32,000 nucleotides of DNA from Ruminococcus albus 7 = DSM 20455 (GTDB taxonomy: Bacteria > Bacillota > Clostridia > Oscillospirales > Ruminococcaceae). Shown here piece by piece: positions 2,527-21,718 of the stretch. The notes under the pieces are model-generated. The model saw only the letters and a list, made by a program, of their open reading frames with translations. It searched no databases and was not told where the DNA came from. Position numbers and translations under genes: made by a program. Every line of letters begins with the position of its first letter. Position 1 is the stretch's first letter. The stretch spans positions 3,360,001 through 3,392,000 of the forward strand of contig NC_014833.1 of assembly GCF_000179635.2 (NCBI RefSeq). Reading direction: 5' to 3'.

Positions 2527-2735
2527 TTATGTAACATGGTTATCCATTTAACACACCATTATAAAGGACTATATAACATCCGAGTATTTCCAGTTCTGAT
2601 ATTACACCAAATTAATTGGTGTGTAAACGGGATAATCAGATTATGTAAAGCATTACACTAATGAGGATTCAGCATAAATTTGTTATTTTTATAAAGCCAT
2701 AGTTGTTTATATCGCTAAAACTTTGTATCTCACGC

Positions 2736-2764
2736 TTTACAAGTATAACGAATAGTGCTATAAT
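2736..2764 (+). promoter_or_regulatory. sigma-A type promoter of the LicD/TagF/TarI-like operon
   Basis: TTTACA, 17 nt spacer, TATAAT, lying inside the 5' extension of the tracked ORF. This argues for the downstream ATG at 2802. Confidence 0.6.
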
Positions 2765-2801
2765 GTATAGGCAATACTGCCAAGATACAGGAGGTGCAGC
2801 T

Positions 2802-4235: not shown

Positions 4236-4260
4236 ACCCGTTCAAACGGAGGAAATATAA

Positions 4261-5535: not shown

Positions 5536-5551
5536 CGGGAGGAATAATATA

Positions 5552-6304
5552 ATGAATATAGCAGTAATTTTCGCAGGCGGAAGCGGCGTAAGAATGGGCG
5601 CTGGCATACCCAAGCAGTTCCTTGAGATAAACGGCAAGCCCATAATCGTACACACACTGGAACTCTTTGAGAACCACAATGATATCGACAAAATATATAT
5701 CGTAATGCTGAAAGACTACATCCCCTACATGAACAAGCTGGTGAAGAAGTTCGCCATAAGCAAGGTTTGCGGAATAGTCGAGGGCGGTGAAACAGGTCAG
5801 GATTCTATCTACAACGGTCTGAAAAAGGCACAGAGCGAGAACCCCGATGATTCTATCGTACTCATACACGACGGTGTTCGCCCATGGGTAAGCTATGATA
5901 CTATCTGCAACAATATCGAGGGCGTTAAGCAGAACGGTAATGCTATCACCTGCACACCTTGTTATGAAACTATCCTTATGAGTACCACAGGCAAGACAGT
6001 TGAAACTGTACCCTACCGTAAGGATACCTACGCAGCACAGGCACCCCAGAGTTTCTACCTCGGTGAGATAATCGCCGACCACGACAAGGTAAGAGCTACC
6101 GAGAACCGCTATGATAATCTTGTAGACTCCTGCACACTCATAAAGAGCATCGGCAAGGAAGCCCACATGGTAGAGGGCAACCGCGGAAATATCAAGGTGA
6201 CCACCCCCGAAGATGTCTATATGTACCGCGCACTTATCCAGTACCGCGAAAACGAACAGGCTTTCGGTATAGGCTCCACCCCCGATATCCTCAAGCAGAA
6301 ATAA
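5552..6304 (+). CDS. IspD/TarI family cytidylyltransferase (ribitol-5-phosphate or similar polyol-phosphate cytidylyltransferase, by context)
   Basis: RBS gggagg. N-terminal AVIFAGGSGVRMGAGIPKQFL signature. Adjacent to the TagF-like and LicD genes rather than to ispF. Confidence 0.85.
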   Translation: MNIAVIFAGGSGVRMGAGIPKQFLEINGKPIIVHTLELFENHNDIDKIYIVMLKDYIPYMNKLVKKFAISKVCGIVEGGETGQDSIYNGLKKAQSENPDDSIVLIHDGVRPWVSYDTICNNIEGVKQNGNAITCTPCYETILMSTTGKTVETVPYRKDTYAAQAPQSFYLGEIIADHDKVRATENRYDNLVDSCTLIKSIGKEAHMVEGNRGNIKVTTPEDVYMYRALIQYRENEQAFGIGSTPDILKQK

Positions 6305-6465: not shown

Positions 6466-6951
6466 ATGATTAAGGAAATTGATCGAAGTGATATACCGAA
6501 TTGTGTCTCTGTTATTAAAGACAGCTTTATGACTGTTGCTGATGAGTTCGGATTCACTTCAGAAAATGCACCCCGATTTACAGCATTCGCTATATCGGAC
6601 GATAGACTGTACTACCAATTGGATAATGAAAATAGAATAATGGTTGCATACTATTTGGATAATAAGGTAGTAGTTGAATATTATTCCTTACTTTTGCAGG
6701 AAGATAATCAATGTGAGCTGAATAACCTAAGTGTCCTTTCCGATTATAGACATAATAATATCGGTACCGCATTGTTGGATGATGCTATAATTCGAGCAAA
6801 AAAATTGGGGTGCGTTAAAATCAATATCGGAATTGTTGAAGAGAATAAGATATTACGAAAATGGTACGAGGATAAAGGCTTTACTCATATTGGTACAAGG
6901 AAATTCGATTTTTTCCCATTTACTTGCGGCTATATGGTAAAGACATTATAA
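6466..6951 (+). CDS. GNAT family N-acetyltransferase
   Basis: The ATG at 6466 has aaaggtga upstream; the tracked ORF starts at an in-frame GTG at 6457. Acetyl-CoA motif-A-like HNNIGTALLDDAIIRAKKLG. Strongly AT-rich. Confidence 0.8.
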   Translation: MIKEIDRSDIPNCVSVIKDSFMTVADEFGFTSENAPRFTAFAISDDRLYYQLDNENRIMVAYYLDNKVVVEYYSLLLQEDNQCELNNLSVLSDYRHNNIGTALLDDAIIRAKKLGCVKINIGIVEENKILRKWYEDKGFTHIGTRKFDFFPFTCGYMVKTL

Positions 6952-6997
6952 TCTAAATTCTGGTTTGGTTTATCTTAGCAGTTGTATAAAATACAAT

Positions 6998-7027
6998 GCC
7001 CCGAAGCACTTTGAAGTGCTTCGGGGC
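6998..7027 (-). terminator. strong hairpin terminator between convergent genes, with a T-run only on the minus strand
   Basis: gccccgaagcac tttgaa gtgcttcggggc is a perfect 12-bp stem with a 6-nt loop. On the minus strand it is followed by attgtatttta. It may also stop the plus-strand GNAT transcript. Confidence 0.7.
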
Positions 7028-7070
7028 AAAACTTCTATATGAGTATCTGTTTTACGGCAGGGGCGGTATT

Positions 7071-7760
7071 TTATTTGCTTGTGTCACCGATGCCGTATTT
7101 ATCTTTCAGCCTTACGAATATTCTTTCTGCGGGCTTTACGAACAACACGAGGAATATGCAGTTCGATACCATATAGCTAACCGTGAACCATGCTGAGGTG
7201 AGGGTCAGCCCGAGAAATCTTTCGGGGGTGAATCCGCCGCCCAGCCATAACACGCTGCATATATCCATAAACACTGAATAACACGCACCTGCAGCCACGC
7301 CGAACACGCACAGCAGCAGGGGCTTTTTTTTCAGTTTACTTCCCACAAGACCTGCCAGCAGACCTATTATACCCCACACCATCATCTGGAAAGGAGTCCA
7401 TATCCCCTGGGTAAAGAAGAAATTTGATATCAGTGCTGTAAGTGCACCTATCATGAATCCCTGTTCAGCCCCTAGGTATATACCTGCAAGTATTATCACA
7501 GCCGCGCAGGGTTTGAAAGCGGGCAGAGGTGCGAATATTATCCTTCCTGCCACAGAAAGTGCCGTCATCACTGCTGTCAGTGCCACCTCGCCCGAAGCCG
7601 CTTCTCTCCGCTCGAACCTTGCGAAGAATATGCCGCATACAGCCACCGCAGCCGAACCTATCAGCCAGACCGCAGCCCTGTCCCTGAATATCACGCAGCC
7701 ACCTGCGATAAGTGCCATTGATCCTGTCAGCAAAGCCGCCTTCACCGACCTGCGCATCAT
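7071..7760 (-). CDS. ECF transporter S (substrate-capture) component, specificity unknown
   Basis: About 6 TM helices, small size, motif QGIWTPFQMMVWGIIG. ATGA overlap with the upstream ATPase gene. Last gene of a T / A-A' / S module. Confidence 0.75.
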   Translation of the reverse strand: MMRRSVKAALLTGSMALIAGGCVIFRDRAAVWLIGSAAVAVCGIFFARFERREAASGEVALTAVMTALSVAGRIIFAPLPAFKPCAAVIILAGIYLGAEQGFMIGALTALISNFFFTQGIWTPFQMMVWGIIGLLAGLVGSKLKKKPLLLCVFGVAAGACYSVFMDICSVLWLGGGFTPERFLGLTLTSAWFTVSYMVSNCIFLVLFVKPAERIFVRLKDKYGIGDTSK

Positions 7761-9343
7761 TCAACTCCCCCTGCCGCCAGCCGCAGCATCTCTGCAGTGT
7801 ATGCATTTTTGACCTCGCCGCGTGCTATCCTGCCTGCAGCGGTACTGAGATATCCTGCCTTCGCGAAAAATCCTGCCGCAGGCATCAGGCTCTCCACACG
7901 TCCGCCGCACAGTATACCACAGCTGTCTGCGGTTTCTGCCGCGTATTCCATATCATGGGTCACAGTCAGCACTGCCCTGCCCTCAGCGCAAAGCTTTCTG
8001 ACCATATCCCCTATACGCCTGCGTGCCTCAGCATCCAGACCCTTTGTGGGCTCGTCCAGCAGAAGTATCTCAGGCTCGCATAAAAGCACCCTGCCAAGAC
8101 CGCACAGCTGCATCTCACCGCCGCTGAGGTCATATGGGTGCATATCCCCGAGGTGTCCGCAGCCCATACGCTCAAGCATCTCATCAGCCCTGTCCTCAGG
8201 CTTTCCCATAGCCCTCAGTGCATAGATATAATCCTCGCGCACCGTCGGCTGAACAAACAGGTCTGCCGCCTCCTGCGGAAGCATCGCAGTAACAGCACCC
8301 TGCTTTTTCTGCCGTTTCCCGAAGACTTCCACCTTGCCCGAGTAAGCCCTGCAAAGTCCTGCAAGACACCTCAGCAGAGTGGTCTTGCCGCTGCCGTTAG
8401 CCCCGATGAGTGCCAGATGCTCTCCCCTGTGCAGAAGTATATCCGCCCCTGCCAGTATATCATCATCCTTGCGCCCCCACGCGAACCTTACTCCCTCAGC
8501 ACGCAAAGCATCCTCCCCGAAGGTCTTCCTTTCACCAAGAGGCACCTCTCTCTTATGAGGTATCTCAGCCAGCAGCCGCCTGCCCTCACGCACCGTCAGC
8601 GGTACAGGCTCATACCCTGCAAAAGCCCTTGCTGCCGCAGGCATAAAGCTCTCTGCCGCCTTTACGGCTGCTGTTTCACGGGGTGTACCGTCCGCAATTA
8701 TCCTGCCGTCTTCAAGGAATATCACCCTGTCACATTCTGCAAACAGCAGTTCGGTACTGTGCTCCGCAATTATCACCGTCATACCCGTTTCACGGTTAAG
8801 CCGAAGTATCAGGGCGCTCATATCCTCAGCCGTCACAGGGTCAAGTCGGCTGAAAGGCTCGTCAAGCAGAAGTATCTCAGGCTGCATGACAAGTGCCGCA
8901 CAAAGGCTCACCAACTGCTTTTCACCGCCCGAAAGCTCACTCAGTTTCCGCTCCGCAAGCTTTCCCAGCCCGAAACGGGTTATGGTTTCCGCCGCAAGCC
9001 GACGTACCTCCGCCGCATCAAGCCCTGCATTCTCAGGAGCAAACATTATCTCACCGCGCACCCTGTCACTCACAAAGCCGTCCTCGGGGGACTGTGCCGC
9101 ATACCCGACCTTCGGCTGAGGGCTCACTGCCTTCTCCCCGAATATCCTTATCTCCCCTGTCATATCGCCCCTCGGGGATATCTCAGGCTTCAGCAGTTTC
9201 AGCAATGTGGTCTTGCCGCAGCCCGAATGCCCCATAAGCATCACAAGCTCGCCCCTGCCTATCCTGATATCTATGTCCTGCAGTACAGGTGCATCAGCAC
9301 TGCTGTAACGAAACGTCAGTCCCTTGCAGTAAACAGCGTCCAT
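7757..9343 (-). CDS. energy-coupling factor transporter ATPase, fused duplicated A-A' protein
   Basis: Two full ABC cassettes: GHSGCGKTTLL / LSGGEKQ / LLLDEP and GANGSGKTTLL / LSGGEMQ / LLLDEP. Start placed at the internal ATG (MDAVYCKGL...) with ggagagg RBS. The tracked ORF extends to 9385. Confidence 0.9.
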   Translation of the reverse strand: MDAVYCKGLTFRYSSADAPVLQDIDIRIGRGELVMLMGHSGCGKTTLLKLLKPEISPRGDMTGEIRIFGEKAVSPQPKVGYAAQSPEDGFVSDRVRGEIMFAPENAGLDAAEVRRLAAETITRFGLGKLAERKLSELSGGEKQLVSLCAALVMQPEILLLDEPFSRLDPVTAEDMSALILRLNRETGMTVIIAEHSTELLFAECDRVIFLEDGRIIADGTPRETAAVKAAESFMPAAARAFAGYEPVPLTVREGRRLLAEIPHKREVPLGERKTFGEDALRAEGVRFAWGRKDDDILAGADILLHRGEHLALIGANGSGKTTLLRCLAGLCRAYSGKVEVFGKRQKKQGAVTAMLPQEAADLFVQPTVREDYIYALRAMGKPEDRADEMLERMGCGHLGDMHPYDLSGGEMQLCGLGRVLLCEPEILLLDEPTKGLDAEARRRIGDMVRKLCAEGRAVLTVTHDMEYAAETADSCGILCGGRVESLMPAAGFFAKAGYLSTAAGRIARGEVKNAYTAEMLRLAAGGVE

Positions 9344-10176
9344 TGAAGCCTCTCCTTTCCCAGTATAATAAGCGGCAGCATACATTCCGCAAGATATACC
9401 GCCGTCATAACGAGCTCATATCTTCCGAAGTCTATCGTCGGGAAAAACTCCGTTGCTCCGCCCATTGACGAAAGCACCAGACCTGCGGCTGTAAGCAGTA
9501 CCACCGCACCAATGGATACCATGTCCTTAGCCCTCAGTGCCCTCCTGTCAGAAAATCTCACGGGATGCGTGCCGTATCCACGGGCATTCATGCTCTGTGC
9601 CGCACCTGCAGCCGCCTCTGCCGACCAAGCCATGCAGGCAGTAAATACCGCCCCGACTTCTCCCAGCCGACCTGTAGGACTGTTCTCCCTGAAAAGCCCT
9701 GCACCGCGCTGCGCCTCGCTTATCCTTCTGTTTTTCTGTATCAGCCGCGGTATGAACCCGAGGGTCATACTGATAGTCATGGCAAGCCTCGGAGAATATC
9801 TCCCGAATATGCCCAGCATCTCACGCTCGTTCACAATACTTCGCATGACCGCCAGCCATACCCCCGCACCGCTCAGCGAAAGTCCAAGCTCCAGCCCGTA
9901 AAGCATGGATTCCAGCGTGTAGGGACGGTCATTCACAAAGAGCAGGACAGTCATTCCCCTGTGTGAGAATATGGGGTCAATAACAGCCGTAGCCGCACAT
10001 ATCACCAGTACACCTGCCGCCCATTTCAGCCCCCTGCGCCAGCCGTCATACAGCGCCATGCACATAAGCCCCGTCACTGTCCCGACACCTGCCGCGCAAA
10101 GTGACCTGGGGAACATTATCATCACCAGTATACCCACTACAGCCGCTATACGCGTCAGCGGCGCAAAACTCTTCAT
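9316..10176 (-). CDS. energy-coupling factor transporter transmembrane (T) component, CbiQ/EcfT family
   Basis: Polytopic membrane protein with the T-component coupling-helix motif ...SMNARGYG (Ala-Arg-Gly) and an upstream EAQRGAG. ATGA overlap with the upstream gene. Confidence 0.85.
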   Translation of the reverse strand: MKSFAPLTRIAAVVGILVMIMFPRSLCAAGVGTVTGLMCMALYDGWRRGLKWAAGVLVICAATAVIDPIFSHRGMTVLLFVNDRPYTLESMLYGLELGLSLSGAGVWLAVMRSIVNEREMLGIFGRYSPRLAMTISMTLGFIPRLIQKNRRISEAQRGAGLFRENSPTGRLGEVGAVFTACMAWSAEAAAGAAQSMNARGYGTHPVRFSDRRALRAKDMVSIGAVVLLTAAGLVLSSMGGATEFFPTIDFGRYELVMTAVYLAECMLPLIILGKERLQWTLFTARD

Positions 10177-10655: not shown

Positions 10656-12467
10656 TCAATACAGCCCTCGCAGCCGCCGTATCAGACTTTTTATGCGCCC
10701 CTGTTTTTTAGAAGCCCTCAGTGCTTCCTCATAGAATCTCTTTGCCTTTTCCAAAGCCTTGTCATCGGGGGCTTTGTCGGAAAATCTCAGTTCCTCATAA
10801 GCCCTCTCGGATTCAGCGAACCGTGTGCCAAGCAGACCCTCTGCTTTCTCTGCCAGTACCTCGGGGGGAAGTCCGTGTAGTCCCAGCACCTCCTCCATAA
10901 GCTGTCTGCCCTGAAAATGATCAGCCTTCAGCGCCGCAGTATCATCATGCTTTCTCCGCAGTGACCACCTGTATGCCGCCCTTATCCTGCCTGCCGCCAA
11001 TGCCGCCGCAAGTATGCCAAAGGGCATCAGCATAAGCCTTCCCGAGGTTTTTGTGGTTTCCTTTTCGGCACGTATCTCTGCGGCTGTACGCGGCGGTGCC
11101 GAACGGTATATGATATCCTCCGCCGATGAGGTAAGTCCGTCACTTTCCTCACCGTCCGCGGAAGTCCCCTCGGGAAGAAGCGGAGAGCTTTCTTCATACT
11201 CCCGTGAAGCTTCAAACACTGACCAGCCTGCACCGTCGATGTATACCTCTGCCCATTCACGTTGCTCGCCGTCTGCAAGCCTTGCTTTGCCGCCTTCGGG
11301 CATACTCTTAAAATATATGCCCTTTACTGTTCTCGCGGCTATACCGCAGCTTCTCGCAATATCCACTGTCAGCTGCGCATGATCGCTGCTGTCAGCCGCT
11401 TTGTCCGAAAGCTCATTCCTCACAGCCGTCCTTACAGCTGCAAGTTTAACATCAAGGGGCTGTGTACCGTCCACAGGGTACTTCTCACGTAGCTTTTCTT
11501 CCTCATCAGCTGTCAGGCTGCCGTAAGCAGAATACACATACTCGCGGTAAAGTCCCTCGCGGTCAAGATATTCGCCTTCTTTCAACTGTGTCATCAGCCT
11601 GAATATCTCCTTATCTGCCTGCGGACACACCACGTATCCGCCTTCAGTATATTCCGAACATACTCCTGCAGGGATAAGATCTTCACCGACATTAACTTTC
11701 TCCATCGGCAGTACAGCGCCTGCAGATCCCATAAGCTGACCTTTCTGTGTCATCTCATCGAAGCCTGCTTCACGCAGGGTTTTCATTATCGCTGAACCTC
11801 TTGCATACTGCGCCTTGCTGCAGTGCGGCTCCTCGTAGCTCTCTGCCAGATAAAGGGTCATACCCTCTGCTGCCGATACTTCGCCTGCAGGCGGCAGTTC
11901 GGGCAGCCTTATCAGCACCGCAGGCAGGGCTATTACCGCCGCCCCCAGTGAAAGCACAGCACGCCTCATATCCTTTGCACCGAGTATAAGCACCGATACC
12001 GCCAGTGCGACCGCACCGCAGACAAGCAGGCTGCTGCCGCCGAAAAGCACGCTCCCCGCAGCAGCCGCTATCCCCCACAGTACCGCTGCCGCTCTCACTC
12101 CTGCGGCTGAATACACCGCACAGGATATGCCGCAGAAGATAAGCACTGCAATATAAGCACTGTCAGCCGCCCCTGCCACAGGCACATACATCAGACCGCG
12201 CTTTATCGTATACATATACTCAGCACTGTCGGCACAAAGGGCAAATTCTGCCCTAGCCCTGTCATGGAGGATACCTGCCGCCAGCCCGCCGCATAAGGCA
12301 GGCAAAAAGCCCCATATCCGTCCTAAACGCTCAGCGAGATATGCCGTCAGCACACACAGGAACAGAGCTGCCGCTCCAGCGTACAGCCCACCCCATATAC
12401 CTACTGTCAGTGCCGTCCCCACCCCGAAAACTACGGGTGCGGAGATATACGTTCTCTTTTCTTCCAT
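10656..12467 (-). CDS. transglutaminase-like polytopic membrane protein (TgpA-like) with DUF4129-like C-terminal region; catalytic triad apparently substituted
   Basis: About 6 N-terminal TM helices. Core ...ARSCGIAARTVKGIY...REWAEVYIDGAGWSVFEAS aligns to the transglutaminase core (GIPAR ... HAWAEVY..GW..FDP). A further TM helix and a helical C-terminal tail follow. Sits downstream of MoxR and DUF58. Confidence 0.8.
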   Translation of the reverse strand: MEEKRTYISAPVVFGVGTALTVGIWGGLYAGAAALFLCVLTAYLAERLGRIWGFLPALCGGLAAGILHDRARAEFALCADSAEYMYTIKRGLMYVPVAGAADSAYIAVLIFCGISCAVYSAAGVRAAAVLWGIAAAAGSVLFGGSSLLVCGAVALAVSVLILGAKDMRRAVLSLGAAVIALPAVLIRLPELPPAGEVSAAEGMTLYLAESYEEPHCSKAQYARGSAIMKTLREAGFDEMTQKGQLMGSAGAVLPMEKVNVGEDLIPAGVCSEYTEGGYVVCPQADKEIFRLMTQLKEGEYLDREGLYREYVYSAYGSLTADEEEKLREKYPVDGTQPLDVKLAAVRTAVRNELSDKAADSSDHAQLTVDIARSCGIAARTVKGIYFKSMPEGGKARLADGEQREWAEVYIDGAGWSVFEASREYEESSPLLPEGTSADGEESDGLTSSAEDIIYRSAPPRTAAEIRAEKETTKTSGRLMLMPFGILAAALAAGRIRAAYRWSLRRKHDDTAALKADHFQGRQLMEEVLGLHGLPPEVLAEKAEGLLGTRFAESERAYEELRFSDKAPDDKALEKAKRFYEEALRASKKQGRIKSLIRRLRGLY

Positions 12468-12481
12468 TATCGCTTATACTC

Positions 12482-13405
12482 TCATATACCGTCTATTATC
12501 GTGATACGCTCATCGTTTATGTCCGTATTTACGGCGAATGCGATGATATTACCTTCATCCGCCCTGCTGCAAAGCTTTTCGAGAAAGCTCACGCCAACAG
12601 ACTTATACATCGGGAAATGCAGTACCTCATACATCACAGTTTCACTGTCCGCATTCTCCGTATATCTGAAGTCATCCTCACCGTAAGGCAGTACCAGTCC
12701 GTACTCCACCCCACGCAGGGACAATACCTGTGCCAGACCGCACATAGCCTCTGCCAGTACTCCTGCCCTGTCACCTGCGCCATAGTCCGCAAACAGCCAC
12801 AGCTTGTCCGATCTTTCGGGGATATAGGTGTTTATGTACGGCTTGCCGAAACGGTGTGTAAGTTTCAGGTTTACCTTGCGCAGCGGCTCATCGGGACGTG
12901 CCTCTCTTGCACCGTCAGGTTCATTCTCCCCCACAGCAGCCTCCAGCATATCGTACACCTCAGCCGCAGGAGGATCGGGCATAACAGTTACATAGCCCTC
13001 CGCACAGCATACAACAGACCGCTTTGTTATACCGGGTATATCCTTTCTGTAAAAGCTCATATACCTTATCAGCAGACCGCCGCAGTTATCCTGCGCAGGC
13101 AGCACATATCTGCGTTCATCTCTTATGTCCACATCAAGGGCTGTCCTTTCACCTGTGACTATATTCTCGCAAAGCACCCTGCCGCGCAGACGTTTCTTTC
13201 CTGCGAATATCAGTACCGGAGATCCGCCCTTGTTTATGCATACCCTCTCATAGCTGACATTTACTTCGCCCTTGTCCGCCAGATTTTCAGCCGCAGCCGC
13301 GATCAGCACTGCCAGCATACCTGCCGCGAAGTACAGACCTATTTCATTGAAAAGACCTGCCGCCAGCGCCGCCGCAAAGCACAGCGCGAATATCAGCGTC
13401 CTCAC
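12482..13405 (-). CDS. DUF58 domain protein (vWA-like partner of MoxR)
   Basis: GTG start in a GTGA overlap with moxR. Two N-terminal TM helices. GAREARPDEPLRKVNLKLTHRFGKPYINTY aligns to the DUF58 motif G-R-Y--GD--R-I-W----R. Classical position between MoxR and the transglutaminase-like gene. Confidence 0.75.
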   Translation of the reverse strand: MRTLIFALCFAAALAAGLFNEIGLYFAAGMLAVLIAAAAENLADKGEVNVSYERVCINKGGSPVLIFAGKKRLRGRVLCENIVTGERTALDVDIRDERRYVLPAQDNCGGLLIRYMSFYRKDIPGITKRSVVCCAEGYVTVMPDPPAAEVYDMLEAAVGENEPDGAREARPDEPLRKVNLKLTHRFGKPYINTYIPERSDKLWLFADYGAGDRAGVLAEAMCGLAQVLSLRGVEYGLVLPYGEDDFRYTENADSETVMYEVLHFPMYKSVGVSFLEKLCSRADEGNIIAFAVNTDINDERITIIDGI

Positions 13406-14343
13406 AGGTTCTCCTTGTTTTCGGGGTAAGGCAGTTCTTTGAGTATTTCTTCTAGTATCCCCTCGGGAGTCTTACCTGAGGCACGTGCCTCCCTTGTCAG
13501 CACCAGTCTGTGCGCACATACGGGTATAAAGCAGGTACGTATATCACGGGGCACCACATGATCTCTGCCGTCAAGATAAGCCCCTGCCTTTGCCAGCCTG
13601 AAAAGTGCCAGCGCACCTCTCGGGGATATGCCGCCCTCGGTGTATCTGCTGTCAGCCGCCTTCTGAATAAGGTCACACAGATAGTCCGTCACTTCTTCAC
13701 TGACAGTCACCTTGTTTATCTCAGCCCTGATAGCATCGAGGTCTTCCGCATTACACACCTGCCTGACACTGTCCAGCGGGTCGGAATCCTTTCTATCCGT
13801 AATAAGCCTTTTCAGTGCTTCCCTGTCAGGGGCACCAAGCCTGAGCCTTTCCATGAATCTGTCAAGCTGTGAAAGCGGTATAGCCGAGGTGCCTGCTGTA
13901 CCCGTAGGATTCTGGGTAGCTATCACCGTAAAGTAAGGCGAAAGCTCATGGGTAATGCCGTCTACCGTAAGACCGCGTTCTTCCATGGCTTCAAGCAGTG
14001 CCGCCTGAGTCCTGCCGGATGTCCTGTTCAGCTCGTCTGCCAGCAGAAGGTCTGTCATAGCCGCACCCTCATGGTACACGAACTCGCCCTTGCCCTCATC
14101 GTAAGCCGAATAACCCGTTATATCCGAAGCTGTAGTATCAGGTGTCATCTGTATCCTCCTGAACCTGAGACCCATAGTCCTGGTAAGCGCCAGCGCAAGG
14201 GTAGTCTTGCCCGTACCGGGAGTATCCTCCAGCAGCACATGACCGCCTGCCAGCACACCTGCTATCAGCAGTTCAACGGTATCGTCCTTGCCGATTATGA
14301 CCTTTGTCAGTTGTTCCTTTATTTTCAGGGGAATGGTCTTCAT
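13402..14343 (-). CDS. MoxR family AAA+ ATPase
   Basis: Walker A LLEDTPGTGKTT and Walker B LLADELNR. RTSGRTQAALLEAMEERGLTVDG and ATQNP motifs are typical of MoxR/AAA_3. Confidence 0.9.
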   Translation of the reverse strand: MKTIPLKIKEQLTKVIIGKDDTVELLIAGVLAGGHVLLEDTPGTGKTTLALALTRTMGLRFRRIQMTPDTTASDITGYSAYDEGKGEFVYHEGAAMTDLLLADELNRTSGRTQAALLEAMEERGLTVDGITHELSPYFTVIATQNPTGTAGTSAIPLSQLDRFMERLRLGAPDREALKRLITDRKDSDPLDSVRQVCNAEDLDAIRAEINKVTVSEEVTDYLCDLIQKAADSRYTEGGISPRGALALFRLAKAGAYLDGRDHVVPRDIRTCFIPVCAHRLVLTREARASGKTPEGILEEILKELPYPENKENL

Positions 14344-15515
14344 CTGTTCTTTTCCTTTCTTCTTCGCATAAGGATGCCGCCCGATACAGCCGCTATCCCG
14401 AAAACAGCTATCACCGCAGATACAGAAGCCGTAACTTTTTTCCCTTTCGCAGAGCTTTTTTTCACAGCAGGCGCTGTGGTGTTCCTGTTTTTAGCGGCAG
14501 CCATAGCATCAAGCGTTGTCCTTTGAGGCTTTACTGCACTTCCTTCGTTCATATCGTACACAGACCTTTCGCCCGACCTCAGTCTTTGCAGGCTGCAAAG
14601 GGCTATCAGCGCCTGAGATGATGCAAGCTCGCTGCTGCTTTCGCCCTTTTTGTGAGCGAAGCCGCCGTCATCATTGGCAAAGCTTATCATAGCATCTGTA
14701 AGCCATGCGAACCTTTCATCAGTGTCGGGGTCTATATCAAGGCAGCACAGCGCACATATCATCTGCGCTGTACTCTCACAATTGTCGGCACTGCTTTTGT
14801 TCTCAGCCAGATATCCAAGGGCTGCAGCTATGGTGCCCTCAGCTTCCTCACAGTTTCTGTAAGGTGAAAGCGCCTGAAGTGCCATAGCAGTTATGTCGAT
14901 ATCGCTCCTGCCGTCACCTGCCGTGAGCGAATAGCCGCCGTCGGAGTTCTGTGCAGAGATAATGGTATCTATCATATCTTTCCTGTCGGGGTCTGCTCCC
15001 TCGGGCATCTTCCAGTCACAGCTGTCAACAGCTATCAGTCCCCATATCCATGCGTTCAGCCCCTGCTTGTCCAGTGACCTGTTCTCTCCGCGGAGATAGG
15101 TGCCGCACCCCAGCAGGTCAACACCCGATACATCAGCGGGGTCAGCCCCGAGGCAAAGCCCTGTGAGCACTGCCCTATGCCAGTCCGTAGGGACTATCTT
15201 CCCGATGCTTTTCTCGTCCGAATAATCCTCCTGTATACGTTTCTCCCATGCCGCACGGTACTCGGCTGTATCATCCTCCAGCCCTGCTCTTACCGCGCCT
15301 ATCGCCAGCCAGTCGGAGCTGTCGAACCCGGCATCCTCTGCTATACTGCCCGAAAGAAGGCTGTCCTTTTCGGGTATACCGTTCTTATTCTTTTCAAATG
15401 TGATGATGCCCCTTGCATAGCCCTCTGCCTGACCGGTCTCCAGTGCTGATGCACTTACAGGCACAAGCAGCATCACTGCTGCCGCGGATAATGCCGCAAG
15501 TCTTTTCAACATCAT
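14340..15515 (-). CDS. secreted alpha/alpha-toroid protein (prenyltransferase / squalene-oxidase repeat family; transcobalamin alpha-domain-like) with C-terminal TM anchor
   Basis: Signal peptide (AAAVMLLVPVSASA). Repeated Q-x-x-DGG-[YF] motifs (SAQNSDGGYS, ANDDGGFA). Helical-repeat signatures (DITAMALQAL, SSQALIAL). C-terminal TM helix plus RRRKEK stop-transfer. Confidence 0.75.
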   Translation of the reverse strand: MMLKRLAALSAAAVMLLVPVSASALETGQAEGYARGIITFEKNKNGIPEKDSLLSGSIAEDAGFDSSDWLAIGAVRAGLEDDTAEYRAAWEKRIQEDYSDEKSIGKIVPTDWHRAVLTGLCLGADPADVSGVDLLGCGTYLRGENRSLDKQGLNAWIWGLIAVDSCDWKMPEGADPDRKDMIDTIISAQNSDGGYSLTAGDGRSDIDITAMALQALSPYRNCEEAEGTIAAALGYLAENKSSADNCESTAQMICALCCLDIDPDTDERFAWLTDAMISFANDDGGFAHKKGESSSELASSQALIALCSLQRLRSGERSVYDMNEGSAVKPQRTTLDAMAAAKNRNTTAPAVKKSSAKGKKVTASVSAVIAVFGIAAVSGGILMRRRKEKNR

Positions 15516-17419
15516 TCACCTCCAACATCATTTCCAAGGTCAAGGGAGAATGCCAGCGTAACACGCTCGCCGTCGGCAAATACTGCCGAGGACATAGCGT
15601 ATGAAGGCTTTCTTCCGTTGCGGCTGTAAAGCCAACCCGAGCCCGGTGCAAAATCAAATTCACCGAGAGAATCGGCATCACTGCTGTTGTTGGGCGTTAC
15701 TCCCGCAGCTGCAAGATATGCCCTTGACTCCTCCGTCAGTGCAGCATCTGCAAATCTGCCCTGCATACGTATCCTGTCAAGATACCTGCTGCTGTCACTG
15801 CCACGTGAGGATACCTCAAAACCGTTTTCTTCAAGGAACCTCAGCATTGTATCAAAGCCGTTTTCGCCCTCCAGTACGGGAAAGCTGTCATCTTCACAAA
15901 GCGTACCCAGCCCGACGGCATCAGCTTTTACGGATACAGCTATCCTGCCTACCTCAGTACCTTTCTCAACAGCATCGCAGTTTATTTTATAGAAGAACTC
16001 TGATATCCTGCCTGCCCTGTCTTTCAGCTTTACAGTTACAGCATTCTCACCTGCACGCAGGGAAAGTATATATCCCGTACAGGTGCTGTCCTCCCATTTC
16101 CGCGGTACCTTTGTGCCGCCGCATATCACCTCGGCACTGTCCGAATACAGCCGCACTCCGTCGCAGTCAACTGCCCTGAAAGTCAGTGTATACGCACTGC
16201 CCTTTACCGTTATACCGTCGGTAAGGCTAATGCTTTCAAACCGCGGAAGTCTTTCCTCTGCTGCCGGCGGAAGAGATATTACGGTGAATGTCTGCTCAAA
16301 ACCGTCTTTTCCGTCACGTACCCACAGACGTATCTTATTGTTGCCCTCATTCAGTTTTGCGGTATAATCGCTTTCACCGCGAAGTGCTTTGTCGTTTACC
16401 AGCACTATCAGCTTCGGGGAATTCCCTCCCACTGCCTTTGCGCTGAAGGTGATACTGTCGGAATACACTGTGATATCAGAAAGGTCTGTTATCAGCGAGA
16501 GTTCTCGTACAGGTATATATGTAACAGAAAAATCAAGGACAGTATCCCCCGAGGACAGTTTTATCATGTTCTCGCCCTCGTTAAGGTTAACGGTGAATAC
16601 ATCCCTGCCTTCGACTGTCCTGCCGTTCAGCCATACCTCCATGCCGTCTTCGCAGGAGGCTGTAAAGGTGAATACGGGATCGTAAACATCGCAGTCTTTA
16701 AGGTCTGTGACTATCTCCGAAGCAGGAGATGACAGGTACACCGTATAATCGCGGAAAGCCCTGTATATCCTGTTTTCGCCGTCCTTATAGGTACAGCTTA
16801 CCCTGAGGGAGTTAGCACCCTCTCTCAGGCGCACCCTGCCTGCGAACCCTGTCATAAGAGAACCGTTGACCTCAACATCACAGCGGACAACTTCAAGATC
16901 ATCTGCAAGATGAGTTACAGTGAAAAAGTAGGTACTGTCACTGACGGTCTCACCGTCCTTTATCGAGGCAGTGAAGTACTCACGGTCGGCTTGTCTGCCG
17001 TCGGGGGTCACCTTTGCAGGTTCGGTGGCTTCGTCGGGGACCTGCACTGTCTGTACCGAGGCTTTGCTGTCATCCGCAGAAGATGTATCATCCTCTCCCG
17101 TGACGATGAACGATGCAGGTACATCTGCCGAAGAAGCATCACTGCCGCTGTCAACGGGTGCTGTATCGTTATCGGGTATGCTGTCGGGCACTGAGCTTTC
17201 ATCGGTACGGGAGCTGGTATCTTCCCTTTCGGAGCTGCTGTCCCTGCCCTTCAGCCCTTCGGCTGATATCTCGGGCAGCATGACTTCACGCTGAGTTATG
17301 CCGACAGATATATCCTCACGGGGAGCACTGCGGTAAAAGTGCGCAGCAAAGCAGACAGCCCCTGCTGTAAGCACAGCAGCTGCCGCAGATACTATCAGAC
17401 TTTTCCGCTTTTTTTCCAC
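15512..17419 (-). CDS. membrane-anchored surface protein: Ser/Asp-rich linker, four Ig-like repeats, C-terminal DUF4430 domain
   Basis: GTG start with gggagg RBS. N-terminal TM helix and an S/D/T-rich low-complexity stretch. Four repeats of about 90 aa, each ending L-EG-N-I-L...F-V-Y. C-terminal LGEFDFAPGSGWLYSRNGRKP...ADGERVTLAF is paralogous to 10173-10634. Confidence 0.75.
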   Translation of the reverse strand: MEKKRKSLIVSAAAAVLTAGAVCFAAHFYRSAPREDISVGITQREVMLPEISAEGLKGRDSSSEREDTSSRTDESSVPDSIPDNDTAPVDSGSDASSADVPASFIVTGEDDTSSADDSKASVQTVQVPDEATEPAKVTPDGRQADREYFTASIKDGETVSDSTYFFTVTHLADDLEVVRCDVEVNGSLMTGFAGRVRLREGANSLRVSCTYKDGENRIYRAFRDYTVYLSSPASEIVTDLKDCDVYDPVFTFTASCEDGMEVWLNGRTVEGRDVFTVNLNEGENMIKLSSGDTVLDFSVTYIPVRELSLITDLSDITVYSDSITFSAKAVGGNSPKLIVLVNDKALRGESDYTAKLNEGNNKIRLWVRDGKDGFEQTFTVISLPPAAEERLPRFESISLTDGITVKGSAYTLTFRAVDCDGVRLYSDSAEVICGGTKVPRKWEDSTCTGYILSLRAGENAVTVKLKDRAGRISEFFYKINCDAVEKGTEVGRIAVSVKADAVGLGTLCEDDSFPVLEGENGFDTMLRFLEENGFEVSSRGSDSSRYLDRIRMQGRFADAALTEESRAYLAAAGVTPNNSSDADSLGEFDFAPGSGWLYSRNGRKPSYAMSSAVFADGERVTLAFSLDLGNDVGGE

Positions 17420-17558
17420 GATGAGCTACCTCCCGAAAAAGCATAAAGACCTGCGCCCACGGTCTGAGAAAGTAAACAGTCCATGTGACGCAGATCTGTT
17501 TTTTATAGGTCAAAGTTTATGACATACCCCTGAACGGGATGTGCATGACAAAGAGAGA

Positions 17559-19436
17559 TCATCTCTCCTTGTTTATAAGCTTCTTGCCCTTTATATTTGC
17601 TGCTGTTAACGTGATATCACTGACATTCACCTTGCCGTCTGCATTCACATCAGCCGCATTGAAGCTGTACTTATCTATCACTTTCCTGCTCTTTATATTA
17701 GCTGCAACTATTGCCAGATCAGTGATATTCACTTTGCCGTCACCGTTGACATCGCCTTTATGAGCAAGTGCGCGCTTATACTGATCATCATTTTCTGCAA
17801 CGAGAACGTCTATATCCTGTGATACAGAAGGTGCTTTGCCGTTACCGTTATACAGACCGTAACTGAAGCTTGCTGTGAGGACTTCATCATCGGCACTGAA
17901 CTTATCAACGCTGAATGTAAGATCCTTGCCTGTGATATCTCCTATGGTCTTCACGGGACCGTTTTTGATATCAACAGTATACTCCTTATCGGCAGGTGTT
18001 TCATCTGCCTTGAAGACGAAGGTCTTTACACCATTGGGATGTATGGTGATATCGGGGCACTGGATATCGGGATCGGATATTCCGCTGCCTATTGCAAGGA
18101 TATTGAATGAATCGTTGCGTATATAGAGAAGTCCTGTTTCCTCGTCATATACAGGATCAACTGCGCAGTACTGTGCGTGCTCACCCTGGGGTCTGAACAC
18201 AACAGGAGGACAGGTATGCTTTTTGCCTGCAAGGTCTGTTTCCTCTACAGTATCGGCAGGAGCGGTCATGCCTGCTTTATCCCTGAGCATACGTACAACG
18301 CCCGAAGTACCGTTTTCAACATAGTATATAACATTATAGCCTTCCTTGTCAACGCCTGCGAAAACGCCCTTAGCCTTGCATTCTGCGGAAGTTTCAACGG
18401 CATAAGCAGGTTCAAGCTTTATCTTGCCTTCGGCCTCAACGATATCGAAAACACCGATGTGGGAACCGTTATAATCGTCCCAGCCTGTTCCCTGGAAAGT
18501 AACGTATACCCTGCCGTTTTCAACTATCGGGGTCGAGGTGCAGGTGAAACCATTCGGGCCAAGAAGAGAAGCTGTGATCCCGTAGCCGTAGACCTCACCG
18601 TTAGTGTCGATCAGATGCACACCGCCTTCACGCGAGGTATAGTAGATCACACCATCCTTGAGTACCAGCTTGCTGCGGATATCATCATGTGCGGTACCGA
18701 GCTTACTGATGAGCTCGCCTGTTGCATCGTCAACGGTGACGGTGCGGTTATTTTCGCCTTCCTCGTTAGCGCCTTCTTTGCCGTTCTCGACACCGAAGGT
18801 CACCTTACCGTCGTATACAACAGCGCTTGTCCAGTAGAAGCCGCCCGCATTGGTGTACTCCCATTCTGCAGTCTTTTCCTCATCTGTCTTTTCGGTATCC
18901 CCATCGGCTGCGCTTACCTTTACGAAATCGGCATCTGCCTCATCGGAGTTCCAGAAGCCTGTATAGAGATAGCCGTTTTCAACTACGATATCGCAGGTGG
19001 GCTTGCCGCCGTTCTTGTTTGTGTATACCCACAGTGATGTAAGGGTCTCGGCATCGAAAGCCTGTATCTTGCCGCCGTCGAGAGCCATGAACACTTTGCC
19101 GTCAGCATAAACGGGGCCTTTGGTAGCGTACATAGCTTTACCTGCCATTTTGCCGTTCAATACCTCTTTGCCTGTGAACTTATCTATCTTCTTGATATTA
19201 TCTGCCGAACAGATATAGAGATATCCGTTATCAGCAACAGTGAAGCCTGTGGGGGAATCCGACCACATCATCTTGTCTTCGCCTATCTGATCCGCCCAGT
19301 ACAGGACATTGTCATCAGCCTTGGTGAGATCGGGCGAAAGTGTCTTATCGGCAGCAAACACGTTTAATGCCGCTGCATTTACAGCCAGTATAGATGCGCA
19401 GAACGCACTGAGTATTTTTACAGTTGTTTTTTTCAT
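17559..19436 (-). CDS. secreted PQQ-like beta-propeller repeat protein with C-terminal type-I dockerin
   Basis: RBS ggaga and signal peptide (ALNVFA/AD). PQQ_2-like blades (GKVFMALDGGKIQAFDAETLTSLWVY). C-terminal duplicated calcium-binding segments GDVNGDGKVNITDLAIVAANIK and ADVNADGKVNVSDITLTAANIK form the dockerin. Confidence 0.85.
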   Translation of the reverse strand: MKKTTVKILSAFCASILAVNAAALNVFAADKTLSPDLTKADDNVLYWADQIGEDKMMWSDSPTGFTVADNGYLYICSADNIKKIDKFTGKEVLNGKMAGKAMYATKGPVYADGKVFMALDGGKIQAFDAETLTSLWVYTNKNGGKPTCDIVVENGYLYTGFWNSDEADADFVKVSAADGDTEKTDEEKTAEWEYTNAGGFYWTSAVVYDGKVTFGVENGKEGANEEGENNRTVTVDDATGELISKLGTAHDDIRSKLVLKDGVIYYTSREGGVHLIDTNGEVYGYGITASLLGPNGFTCTSTPIVENGRVYVTFQGTGWDDYNGSHIGVFDIVEAEGKIKLEPAYAVETSAECKAKGVFAGVDKEGYNVIYYVENGTSGVVRMLRDKAGMTAPADTVEETDLAGKKHTCPPVVFRPQGEHAQYCAVDPVYDEETGLLYIRNDSFNILAIGSGISDPDIQCPDITIHPNGVKTFVFKADETPADKEYTVDIKNGPVKTIGDITGKDLTFSVDKFSADDEVLTASFSYGLYNGNGKAPSVSQDIDVLVAENDDQYKRALAHKGDVNGDGKVNITDLAIVAANIKSRKVIDKYSFNAADVNADGKVNVSDITLTAANIKGKKLINKER

Positions 19437-19495
19437 TTTTCATTCTCCGTTCTTGTTTAAGATTTCAGCATTTTTTAAATGCCGATGATAAAGTA

Positions 19496-19524
19496 ATTAT
19501 ATCACATAGCTTTTATTTTTTCAA
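19496..19524 (-). promoter_or_regulatory. sigma-A type promoter of the minus-strand operon
   Basis: On the minus strand: TTGAAA, 17 nt spacer, TATAAT. The -10 element is about 60 nt upstream of the ATG at 19436. A small AT-rich palindrome gcattt-ttt-aaatgc lies in the short leader. Confidence 0.6.
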
Positions 19525-19897
19525 TAGTATATACCACCCAAACAACACGCGCGGTATATCAATAAGCTATGTGCAGGTATAGTTTTAAGCTATGCCGCAG
19601 ATGATCTTACGCTGTCTGATGTGCTTTACCGTGTGTAAAAATTTAATGTCTATTCAGTTGTCAAGATGCAGATATCCCCTTATACAGTATGACACGTCAC
19701 TTCATATCCCGCAGTCATAGTCAGCATCAGCCTGCCATCGTGCGCACAAGGGGACGATATATGTAAACGGCACTTATGAGGTGCCGGGATCTTTGGCTTT
19801 ATACAGAGGGGCATTTCGGAAAGTATCTGTGTACTTACCAAAAAGGTGATCGGCGGGTCTGCCTGATAAACCCCTTCTATATACAGCGAAAAACTGT

Positions 19898-19927
19898 CAA
19901 AAGTTGTACGTTTTTGTACAACTTTTG
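19898..19927. other. perfect 12-bp inverted repeat (orphan hairpin) in a long intergenic region
   Basis: caaaagttgtac gttttt gtacaacttttg. On the minus strand it is followed by acagttttt (weak U-tract). No annotated gene ends here. Confidence 0.4.
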
Positions 19928-20078
19928 CAGAAATATGTCCGAGTTAAAAGAAAAATCATTTGTTTATACAAAACGGACGAATGATGTCAGGCAAAAATGA
20001 CGATGATATGACCGGATATTGGTGAGTGCCGAAAAATCGGGGCAGCGCAGGACTTTTCAGATTTATCAGAAAAAGGTA

Positions 20079-20107
20079 TTGAAAAACAGGGAAATATGTG
20101 CTATAAT
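20079..20107 (+). promoter_or_regulatory. sigma-A type promoter of the SLOG/LCP-like/PII-like operon
   Basis: TTGAAA, 17 nt spacer, TATAAT. It overlaps the first codons of the tracked ORF (20096), so the real start must be downstream. Confidence 0.6.
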
Positions 20108-20143
20108 AATTTTAAGTGTTATCGGAAGGCGGTGACTGCAATA

Positions 20144-20722
20144 ATGAACGGAATGAAGATCATCTCAAAGGATGAATTTATCACTGACAAAGCATCCACC
20201 TGTTGTTTCACGGGACACCGTCGGCGCGACCTGCCATTTGGCGGAGATACCTCAAAGCAGGGAGTCAGGAATCTGATAAGCACTATACATCTGCTTTGCC
20301 GTGAGGCTTACAGCAGAGGCATCCGTACATTCATAACGGGAATGGCGGAGGGCGCTGATATGATCTGCGGATCGGTCATCATGGACATAATAGGCAGCGG
20401 AGAATGTCCCGGGACGAGGCTAGTATGTGCACTGCCCTACGAAGGACACATCAGGGAGATAAAGCTGCCGCGGGACAGGTATGTTTACAGTCTGCTGATG
20501 CAGGCGGCATCTGCCGTAGTGGTGACCGGAGATATCGGTGACAGCGGACGTTACCGTGAAAGGAACAGGTTCATGGTGGAGAATTCGTCGGCGCTGATAG
20601 CAGTATACAAAGAAAAGCAGCGAGGATCGGGCACTTTGCAGACCATAAACATGGCAAAGCGCAGCGGTCTTGATATACACATTATAGACCTCGACAAGAA
20701 CCCGCAGTTCTACTGCGGATAG
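20144..20722 (+). CDS. SLOG family / DUF1273 protein (YpsA-like)
   Basis: CCFTGHRRRDLPFGG, GMAEGADMICG and a C-terminal GSGT motif are typical of DUF1273. Start set at the first ATG downstream of the promoter, with ggaaggcgg upstream. Confidence 0.8.
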   Translation: MNGMKIISKDEFITDKASTCCFTGHRRRDLPFGGDTSKQGVRNLISTIHLLCREAYSRGIRTFITGMAEGADMICGSVIMDIIGSGECPGTRLVCALPYEGHIREIKLPRDRYVYSLLMQAASAVVVTGDIGDSGRYRERNRFMVENSSALIAVYKEKQRGSGTLQTINMAKRSGLDIHIIDLDKNPQFYCG

Positions 20723-20761
20723 GACGGGTATACAAAATCAAAAACAGTAAGGAGAAAATAT

Positions 20762-21718
20762 ATGTCATCTGCCGTAAAGAAAAAAAGAAGAAAGAAAAGG
20801 TCACAGGCTCCGGTCGCCCTTGTATACGTGGTCACGGTACTGATATTCATGGGACTGATCTCAATGCTTGCGATATATATGCTAAGATCCTACGGACTGA
20901 TAGGCACCGAAGAAAAGGAAGAAACTTCCGTTTCTGTACAGACCTTCAACGATCTGTTTGCGAGGGTGAACAGCAACGGTGATCTGGCAGACATGGTATT
21001 CATGAGGATAGACCCGGTGAACAACAGCATACTTGTAGTTCCCATGCCTGCGGAAACGCTCAACAAGACGAATAATATGAAAATGGGTGATATATACAAG
21101 ATATCGGGCATGGCAAGCGTAAAGACCGCTGTGGAAGATACTCTCGGCATGAGAGTGGACAACTACGCTTCGCTTTCAAACGATTCTTTTGAAAGAGTGT
21201 TCGATATGTACGGCGGCATAACCTACAAAGCACCCGAGGAGCTGTACTATCTATCAAAGAAAAACAACGATAATGACATCTCGATACTGAAGGGTGAGCT
21301 TGCTACGCTTGGCGGCAGACAGATCAGGCTGCTGACTCAGTACCCCGTATACTCAAACGGAAAACAGGGCAACAACGAGTTCCTTGGCGAGGCTGTAGAA
21401 TCACTGATTAACACTATGTTCCAGCAGGATTACATAACCAAGGACAATCTGGACAATATATACAACATCGTTACAACAAACAGCGACACTGACATGAACC
21501 AGGACGACTTCAAACTGCAGAAGTCCTACATCAAGGATATGCTCACAAGCAAAAAGTCACCTGCAGAGAAACTGCTTCCCACAGGAACATGGGGCGATAA
21601 GGATTCGTCATTCAAGATAAACGAAGACTTTATCACTGAACTGAAAGAGAAAGCAGCAGAAACGATACCTGAAGCCGGAGCATCTTCCTCCGAGGGTGCT
21701 GCAGAATCAAAACAGTAA
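20762..21718 (+). CDS. LytR-CpsA-Psr (LCP)-like membrane-anchored protein, apparently degenerate
   Basis: RBS aaggag. Lys/Arg-rich N-terminus plus a TM helix. ADMVFMRIDPVNNSILVVPMPAETL and VDNYASLSNDSFERVFDMYGGITY align to LCP core blocks (rsDtimlv..d....v.l.SiPRDt; idyyv.v.f.gf..lvd.lGGv.v). Confidence 0.6.
   Translation: MSSAVKKKRRKKRSQAPVALVYVVTVLIFMGLISMLAIYMLRSYGLIGTEEKEETSVSVQTFNDLFARVNSNGDLADMVFMRIDPVNNSILVVPMPAETLNKTNNMKMGDIYKISGMASVKTAVEDTLGMRVDNYASLSNDSFERVFDMYGGITYKAPEELYYLSKKNNDNDISILKGELATLGGRQIRLLTQYPVYSNGKQGNNEFLGEAVESLINTMFQQDYITKDNLDNIYNIVTTNSDTDMNQDDFKLQKSYIKDMLTSKKSPAEKLLPTGTWGDKDSSFKINEDFITELKEKAAETIPEAGASSSEGAAESKQ

Follow-up and report, generated by a model that had tools for sequence, protein, structure and literature searches.

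A split transcobalamin-like toroid and SLBB pair encoded beside an ECF importer in Ruminococcus albus, predicted to scavenge corrinoids

We analyzed a stretch of 32,000 nucleotides (nt) from the genome of Ruminococcus albus 7 = DSM 20455 (contig NC_014833.1, positions 3,360,001 to 3,392,000; referred to as the window), in which the minus strand encodes a head-to-tail series of ten genes, running from 19436 down to 7071, that makes up an operon of about 12.5 kb (Table 1). The operon encodes an alpha/alpha-toroid protein of 391 amino acids (aa) and two proteins assigned to the SLBB/DUF4430 type (153 and 635 aa), together with the T, fused A-A' and S parts of a transporter of the energy-coupling factor (ECF) type. 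A first reading of the DNA, made without database searches (the original prediction), had taken the toroid and the DUF4430 domains for a bacterial two-chain analog of the transcobalamin fold that feeds an ECF transporter. Based on the comparisons described below, we suggest that the operon probably serves the surface scavenging and import of corrinoids (vitamin B12, cobamides and precursors) in R. albus-type Ruminococcus.

Table 1. Genes and other features of the operon, in window coordinates
Feature	Position	Strand	Remark
Gene 1: PQQ-like beta-propeller protein with type I dockerin, 625 aa	17559..19436	-	first in operon
Gene 2: immunoglobulin (Ig)-SLBB surface protein, 635 aa	15512..17419	-	
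Gene 3: alpha/alpha-toroid protein, 391 aa	14340..15515	-	Pfam and AlphaFold2 (AF2) model
Gene 4: MoxR-type AAA+ ATPase	13402..14343	-	Pfam
Gene 5: DUF58-like membrane-anchored protein, 307 aa	12482..13405	-	weak Pfam match and position
Gene 6: polytopic membrane protein with transglutaminase-like core, 603 aa	10656..12467	-	Pfam
Gene 7: membrane-anchored DUF4430/SLBB protein, 153 aa	10173..10634	-	Pfam
Gene 8: EcfT	9316..10176	-	Pfam
Gene 9: fused EcfA-EcfA' ATPase	7757..9385	-	Pfam
Gene 10: ECF S component, CbrT-like	7071..7760	-	Pfam and PDB sequence match
Predicted sigma-70-like promoter: TTGAAA, 17-nt spacer, TG-extended TATAAT	19496..19524	-	11/12 matches, best of the region
Predicted intrinsic terminator: 14-bp stem with 9 GC pairs, T-rich tail	6997..7028	-	directly past the S-component stop
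Near-perfect palindrome ATAGCTTAAAACTAT (also written ATAGYTTWAAACTAT)	19579..19593	-	about 55 nt upstream of the -35 box

Neighboring genes of the operon mostly overlap by 4 nt or are separated by gaps of less than 25 nt, and a single strong predicted promoter and a single strong predicted terminator flank the set. The 4-nt overlap already noted between the 635-aa gene and the toroid gene is confirmed by the junction GGAGGTGAATGATGTTG, in which the TGA stop and the ATG start share the letters ATGA and which carries a GGAGG ribosome-binding site. The reading frame listed for EcfA-A' overlaps EcfT by 70 nt (9316–9385), and its true start is probably an internal methionine (MDAVYCKGL, around 9343). 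The promoter is kept in relatives and predicts a leader of about 60 nt up to the first ATG at 19436, which would be too short to hold a riboswitch. An NCBIfam scan of the window proteins returned no informative names; the closest database protein is 99% identical and labeled Ruminococcus sp.

The toroid protein scores 26.4 bits against the Pfam family Prenyltrans (PF00432; gathering score 26.5), and its AF2 model (predicted local distance difference test score [pLDDT] 90, predicted template modeling score [pTM] 0.83) places an all-helical barrel at about residues 27–313, with a signal helix at the N-terminus and a transmembrane helix at the C-terminus (residues 359–390). The topology of the 391-, 635- and 153-aa proteins was read from the sequence without a dedicated signal-peptide predictor, and for the 391-aa protein only from the model as well. 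On this basis, the signal or anchor sequences that the original prediction had ascribed to all three proteins hold, as does a secreted toroid, whereas its “Q-x-x-DGG repeats” turn out to be a slightly generous description of one QNSDGG (residues 189–194) and one NDDGGF (residues 281–286). The toroid also contains the stretch D205-I-D207-I-T-A (14886–14903, residues 205–210), which aligns with the DxDDTx motif of class II terpene cyclases but has Ile in place of the third Asp; throughout the toroid family, D205, D207 and T209 show at least 90% conservation, although the protein is extracellular. H288 in DGGFAH, as well as E247 and Q251 in NCESTAQ, are nearly invariant across the family. D205, D207, T209, H288, E247 and Q251 may be ligand contacts.

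Transcobalamin proteins end in a C-terminal domain that Pfam lists as DUF4430 (PF14478). The 153-aa protein clearly belongs to this family (Pfam E 3.4e-16) and has an N-terminal hydrophobic anchor, and its gene lies directly upstream of EcfT with a 4-nt overlap, so that the stand-alone DUF4430 protein described earlier as preceding the ECF genes is borne out on both counts. The 635-aa protein begins with a membrane anchor at its N-terminus, followed by a stalk rich in Ser and Asp, beta-sandwich repeats of the Ig-like kind and, at the C-terminus, a divergent SLBB/DUF4430 domain, which remains below the Pfam threshold (18.1 bits versus 23.8, over half of the model). This C-terminus matches the 153-aa protein in BLASTP (E 4e-7); the two domains align over their full length, with SGW-Y-x-NG-x-P and a terminal DLGxDxGG in common and an insert of about 40 residues in the 635-aa protein, and in most of the related loci introduced below the orthologs of the 635-aa protein cross-match the small DUF4430 proteins. 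Despite the sub-threshold Pfam score, these sequence comparisons argue that the divergent DUF4430 domain, as originally proposed, is real. Its extent had been drawn too short, however; because the alignment to the 153-aa protein runs across the whole domain, we place it at about 15512–15961 instead of letting it end at 15800.

In Pfam, EcfT matches CbiQ just under the gathering score (E 3e-5), the fused EcfA-EcfA' protein contains two ABC_tran domains (E 7e-54) and the S component belongs to ECF-ribofla_trS (E 4e-12). The only PDB sequence match of the S component below 1e-3 is 6FNP_A (E 1.9e-6), a 182-aa chain entered as “Membrane protein”, with residues 59–223 of the S component aligning to residues 12–177 of the chain. 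From its length and membrane character, we take this chain to be CbrT, since 6FNP is ECF-CbrT, a Lactobacillus delbrueckii importer of vitamin B12 and cobinamide for which hemin is no competitor (Santos et al. 2018, eLife). ECF-CbrT is likewise an ECF-type importer, of low sequence similarity to the window system, but it needs no extracellular binding protein, whereas the window module is encoded beside surface binders. In addition, ECF-CbrT runs on a shared (group II) ECF module, while the module encoded in the window is dedicated.

A scan for related loci, restricted to one genome per species and seeded with an alignment of 20 closer toroid sequences, yielded 80 loci. Most of these come from Oscillospiraceae, Lachnospiraceae and other Clostridia, and a few from Christensenella, Desulfosporosinus, Kurthia, Siminovitchia and Pseudogracilibacillus. 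When the open reading frames of the 80 loci were searched with the ten window proteins, the toroid had a homolog in every locus, followed by the Ig-SLBB protein (76 loci), the small DUF4430 protein (66), EcfT (59), EcfAA' (58), EcfS (52), MoxR (32), the propeller (23) and the transglutaminase-like protein (21). The canonical gene order is a large toroid- or propeller-containing protein, the Ig-SLBB protein, the toroid, the small DUF4430 protein, EcfT, EcfAA' and EcfS, and throughout the scan the small DUF4430 gene always stays directly upstream of EcfT. Ruminococcus-type loci (the window and loci L001–L011) have a trio of MoxR, DUF58-like and transglutaminase-like genes between the toroid and the small DUF4430 gene; in some Bacilli and Lachnospiraceae, MoxR follows EcfS.

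We regard natural fusions, compared at the level of sequence and of predicted models, as the deciding evidence for a transcobalamin-type reading of the toroid. Several distant toroid homologs contain PF00432 and PF14478 in one chain, mostly with the toroid first and sometimes in the reverse order. A search from one such fusion, P0091 (539 aa), found 222 proteins, fusions of this sort making up more than 200 clusters, and the 120 matches listed are each about 515–570 aa long and contain PF14478 without exception. The window toroid aligns with residues 1–321 of P0091 (32% identity, E 2e-32) and the window 153-aa protein, its anchor included, with residues 370–528 (31% identity, E 6e-20), so that P0091 corresponds exactly to a toroid gene plus a small DUF4430 gene. 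Fusions of this type carry two hydrophobic helices (a transmembrane hairpin) between the toroid and DUF4430 parts. In a second type, represented by L035, L043, L049, L057 and L066, the Ig-SLBB protein continues via a Ser-rich linker of about 120–190 residues into a toroid part that lacks a signal peptide. Thus, for each of the two SLBB paralogs there is a lineage in which its gene has become fused with that of the toroid.

The fused form is also the one that leads to the B12 carriers in structure comparisons. The top 15 PDB matches of the P0091 model (pLDDT 87.6) are transcobalamin, haptocorrin and intrinsic factor (E 1e-9 to 1e-6), with 499–554 aligned columns, and GH105 hydrolases and terpene cyclases rank below them (E 4e-6 or worse). 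When compared with the isolated beta domain of human transcobalamin (5no0), the SLBB part of the model reaches a TM score of 0.78.

Cobalamin riboswitches precede most of the related operons. The Rfam family RF00174 was found above its gathering score in 15 of the 22 loci scanned with Rfam, each time in the orientation of the operon and shortly before its first gene; L009, L010 and L011, which share the exact ten-gene order of the window, have an Rfam-confirmed riboswitch before the propeller gene. Starting from four Rfam hits, an iterated nhmmer profile matched 47 of the 80 loci; all of these matches share the strand of the operon and lie upstream of its first homologous gene. Thirty-six of these matches reach at least 70 bits, and all eight of them that were tested by Rfam were confirmed; among the 11 weaker matches, seven were confirmed by Rfam and four (L008, L024, L036 and L072) were not confirmed at the gathering score, which leaves about 43 of the 80 loci as credible. 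For canonical ECF-only loci whose 5' end lies on the contig, the riboswitch is present in 32–34 of 35, and the loci without one are almost all truncated upstream.

Two of the leaders have features of their own. L031 (Ligaoa zhengdingensis) contains two tandem cobalamin riboswitch aptamers upstream of the locus (6947–7130 and 7268–7417). L036 has a strong match to the TwoAYGGAY RNA (6868–7034, minus strand, 129 bits) just upstream of the toroid locus, and the nhmmer riboswitch match at this place is only partial.

Taken at the level of the family, the two-chain transcobalamin analog feeding an ECF transporter is supported along four independent lines, namely the natural fusions, the fold, the riboswitches in relatives and the CbrT-like S component. 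We infer that the membrane-anchored toroid would pair with an SLBB/DUF4430 domain as a heterodimer and that a corrinoid would be clamped by the two together, in the manner of transcobalamin with its alpha and beta domains. The ligand would then be handed to the CbrT-like S component and imported by means of the dedicated EcfT and fused EcfA-A' proteins. The long-stalked 635-aa protein and the dockerin-tethered propeller are probably outer capture or relay elements, while a role of the MoxR/DUF58-like/transglutaminase trio in assembly or anchoring would be a guess.

Several observations weigh against this assignment. In PDB sequence searches, the toroid alone and a 68-member family profile both led to class II terpene cyclases as best relatives (7xq4, E 1.6e-19 with the profile) and to squalene-hopene cyclase, and neither query reached transcobalamin. 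A Foldseek comparison of the lone toroid model with the PDB gave weak matches throughout (E at least 4e-3), all of the generic toroid kind, in which transcobalamin (8ixt at rank 16, E 9e-3; 4zrp; 7qbe) was interleaved with terpene cyclases and prenyltransferase beta subunits. By sequence and by model, the lone toroid appears to fit transcobalamin no better than it fits cyclases and prenyltransferases and cannot discriminate between them; the fold search upholds the toroid fold of the original prediction, but the 391-aa model alone gives no separation of transcobalamin from cyclases. PDB sequence searches with the SLBB side, using either the 153-aa protein alone or a DUF4430 profile of 16 sequences from these loci, also returned chance-level hits and no transcobalamin match. 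The orientation of the domains in the P0091 model is unreliable (pTM 0.61, root-mean-square deviation of about 10 Å to transcobalamin), and the match of the S component to 6FNP_A/CbrT is modest at 31 bits. In the window itself, Rfam found no cobalamin or other plausible riboswitch, either across the whole window at the gathering score or in 17300–20200 at E<=10, in line with the earlier remark that no convincing cobalamin riboswitch lies upstream, and the closest clade (L001–L005 and L050) likewise lacks a cobalamin riboswitch according to nhmmer and Rfam. Nor is riboswitch control alone proof of a corrinoid cargo, because regulation by B12 also extends to cobalt transporters and to isozymes that do not depend on B12.

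The palindrome upstream of the operon promoter occurs once per locus in the riboswitch-less clade (the window, L001–L005 and L050) and is absent from the remaining 74 loci. From its position and distribution, we infer that it may be an operator that replaced the cobalamin riboswitch which occupies this place in the sister loci L008–L011.

A perfect 12-bp inverted repeat, CAAAAGTTGTAC-N6-GTACAACTTTTG, lies further upstream of the operon promoter at 19898–19927, between divergent genes, and is conserved in the window, L001, L002 and L050. Divergent to the operon, a YpsA/SLOG-family protein and a LytR-CpsA-Psr family protein are encoded at 20096–21718; on the other side, 2703–6304 contains further open reading frames.

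The main rival to corrinoid uptake is that the cargo is heme or iron porphyrins, as has been reported in Lactobacillus sakei for a system of this architecture, with deletion of lsa1836-1840 impairing heme accumulation. This is the only experimentally studied system of the architecture, which adds to the points against a corrinoid cargo; moreover, heme and corrins are both tetrapyrroles, and the R. albus clade, having lost the cobalamin riboswitch, may have switched cargo. However, B12 was not assayed in the L. sakei study, which left heme-versus-cobalamin specificity open, most related loci are under cobalamin riboswitches, and CbrT, for which hemin does not compete, is the nearest solved relative of the S component. 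The window S component is still 54–59% identical to those of the riboswitch-controlled sister loci L009 and L011 (45–47% to L018, L025 and L044) and is conserved better than any other protein when the window is compared with riboswitch-bearing loci, with the ATPase only 36–46% identical. This conservation argues against a change of substrate in the window clade, and we consider heme an unlikely cargo.

The accessory genes offer another way to read the locus. The MoxR-type ATPase is well supported in Pfam (AAA_3 1e-46, AAA_lid_2 1e-21), as is the transglutaminase-like protein (Transglut_core 1e-9), which recurs with MoxR in related loci; the 307-aa protein has only a weak DUF58 match (E 0.17) and is called DUF58-like because its gene follows MoxR and is conserved in relatives. 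The trio recurs with toroid and SLBB genes (window 10656–14343; L015, L018, L025, L034, L077, L079, L029 and L047) in varying positions: inside the operon, after EcfS, or in loci that lack ECF genes and still carry a cobalamin riboswitch. The propeller protein is secreted and combines PQQ_2 (Pfam E 4e-12) with Dockerin_1 (7e-12), and the dockerin implies anchoring of the cellulosome type. One could accordingly see the core of the locus as a surface-protein assembly or cell-wall module (MoxR, DUF58-like protein, transglutaminase, propeller-dockerin and Ig-stalk), with the toroid and SLBB proteins as structural clients and transport as secondary. About 11 loci (L012, L013, L029, L030, L041, L045, L047, L054, L060, L069 and L078) fit such a module in that a giant propeller occurs there together with the Ig-SLBB protein, the toroid, MoxR and the transglutaminase, whereas ECF genes are missing within 10 kb. 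Rfam-confirmed cobalamin riboswitches are nevertheless retained in two of them (L029 and L047), the missing ECF genes may lie elsewhere in the respective genomes, and in 41 loci ECF genes and binders occur without MoxR, which makes a primary role in assembly quite improbable.

Least probable is that the toroid is an active terpene-cyclase/prenyltransferase-like enzyme, or a lipid or glycan binder at the cell envelope, whose DUF4430/ECF neighborhood stems from another shared process: its cyclase relatives in the PDB, the conserved match to DxDDTx and the GH105/GH88 toroids among the fold matches point that way, but its domain lies on the outer side of the membrane, where one would not expect isoprenoid diphosphates, it consists of one toroid and not of a beta-gamma didomain, it is repeatedly fused to SLBB domains and then best matched by B12 carriers, and its relatives stand in riboswitch-controlled loci. 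An active cyclase in particular is rejected because of topology (signal peptide, C-terminal anchor, single toroid) and the degenerate DxDD motif. An alpha-2-macroglobulin/complement thioester domain (TED) is rejected as well, because the 391-aa sequence lacks CGEQ; matches to TED or alpha-2-macroglobulin were only marginal.

Returning to corrinoid uptake, the gene that directly follows the riboswitch in L008–L011, L044 and L071 encodes a propeller homolog, in many cases a giant one (the L008 riboswitch being unconfirmed by Rfam). In the BtuG-BtuB system of Bacteroides, a surface-exposed beta-propeller stands at the front of a riboswitch-controlled B12 uptake locus, similar in concept to the front propeller of the window. 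The likeness is an analogy only: the window propeller is PQQ/BamB-like, its host is Gram-positive and the transporter is of another type, and a PDB sequence search with the propeller protein found only dockerins and BamB, with no detectable relation to BtuG. By this analogy, the propeller is possibly a functional counterpart of BtuG. A broader view, which we hold tentatively and think rather doubtful, is that in many Clostridia the corrinoid-capture operons would be larger surface machines of which MoxR, the DUF58-like protein, the transglutaminase and the propeller would be integral and B12-regulated parts. The propeller, dockerin-tethered to the cellulosome in the window and giant and wall-associated elsewhere, could then act as a BtuG-like outer binder of high affinity, the trio could mature, cross-link or recycle the binders, and the R. 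albus clade would have rewired the complete unit from riboswitch to protein-operator control.

Like the window system, eukaryotic transcobalamin, intrinsic factor and haptocorrin combine an alpha6/alpha6 toroid with a DUF4430/SLBB beta domain. Unlike these soluble carriers, in which a single chain runs from the alpha to the beta domain, the window has its toroid and SLBB domains on separate genes, giving two or three chains, which are membrane- or wall-tethered. The window toroid moreover retains the terpene-cyclase-like motifs QxxDGG and DxDxTA. Sequence identity to the eukaryotic carriers is about 11–14%, and corrinoid binding of the bacterial proteins is only predicted.

The idea of split transcobalamin-like proteins working with an ECF transporter is already published, for a class of systems that is biochemically unproven. 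Burroughs, Balaji, Iyer and Aravind (2007, Biol Direct 2:4; PMC1796856) describe bacterial secreted or anchored transcobalamin-like SLBB domains that are fused to alpha/alpha toroids in both orders and also to Ig and beta-propeller domains, in operons that include a further, paralogous SLBB gene and are linked to CbiO-/CbiQ-like genes, and independently predict B12 scavenging for this operon class. The window locus fits the description almost point by point; it differs in that the toroid and both SLBB domains reside on separate polypeptides, the propeller is a separate dockerin-bearing protein and the MoxR/DUF58-like/transglutaminase trio is embedded in the operon, and riboswitch control and an S component are not reported in the passages of that paper considered here.

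For L. sakei Lsa1836-1840, Verplaetse et al. (2019, bioRxiv 10.1101/864751) described separate exported transcobalamin-alpha-like and beta-like proteins beside an ECF module of S, T and fused AA' proteins, and assigned heme uptake from the deletion phenotype and docking. Likened by composition as described in that paper, these proteins equal the five core parts of the window, namely S (about 230 aa), fused A-A', T, an exported beta-like and an exported alpha-like (prenyltransferase-like) protein, and are a direct precedent for a split pair feeding an ECF transporter; the Ig-SLBB protein, propeller and MoxR trio are present in the window and are not described for L. sakei. A search seeded with a toroid from Kurthia (Bacilli) found no L. 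sakei homolog among the best 120 matches listed. Novelty is modest, because both papers had described such systems. We found no paper in the searchable literature that links riboswitch, prenyltransferase-repeat protein and ECF; as far as that literature shows, what is new comprises the control of canonical loci by riboswitches almost throughout, the link to CbrT, both types of fusion, the repeated association of MoxR, transglutaminase and propeller, and the R. albus clade's replacement of its riboswitch.

B12 acquisition by Gram-positive anaerobes of the gut and rumen is poorly mapped, and competition for corrinoids shapes these communities. The window locus is a well-preserved case of a predicted class, in which the fold of the animal B12 carriers occurs in a split bacterial form and is coupled to an ECF importer. 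The link to cobalamin riboswitches across the family argues for a corrinoid cargo and bears on the heme assignment of the L. sakei system. The embedded MoxR, transglutaminase and dockerin-propeller genes and the exchange of a riboswitch for a palindrome in one clade are new leads, offered as side observations and not as proven parts of the mechanism. In addition, the locus supports the idea that animal transcobalamin descends from bacterial proteins of this kind.

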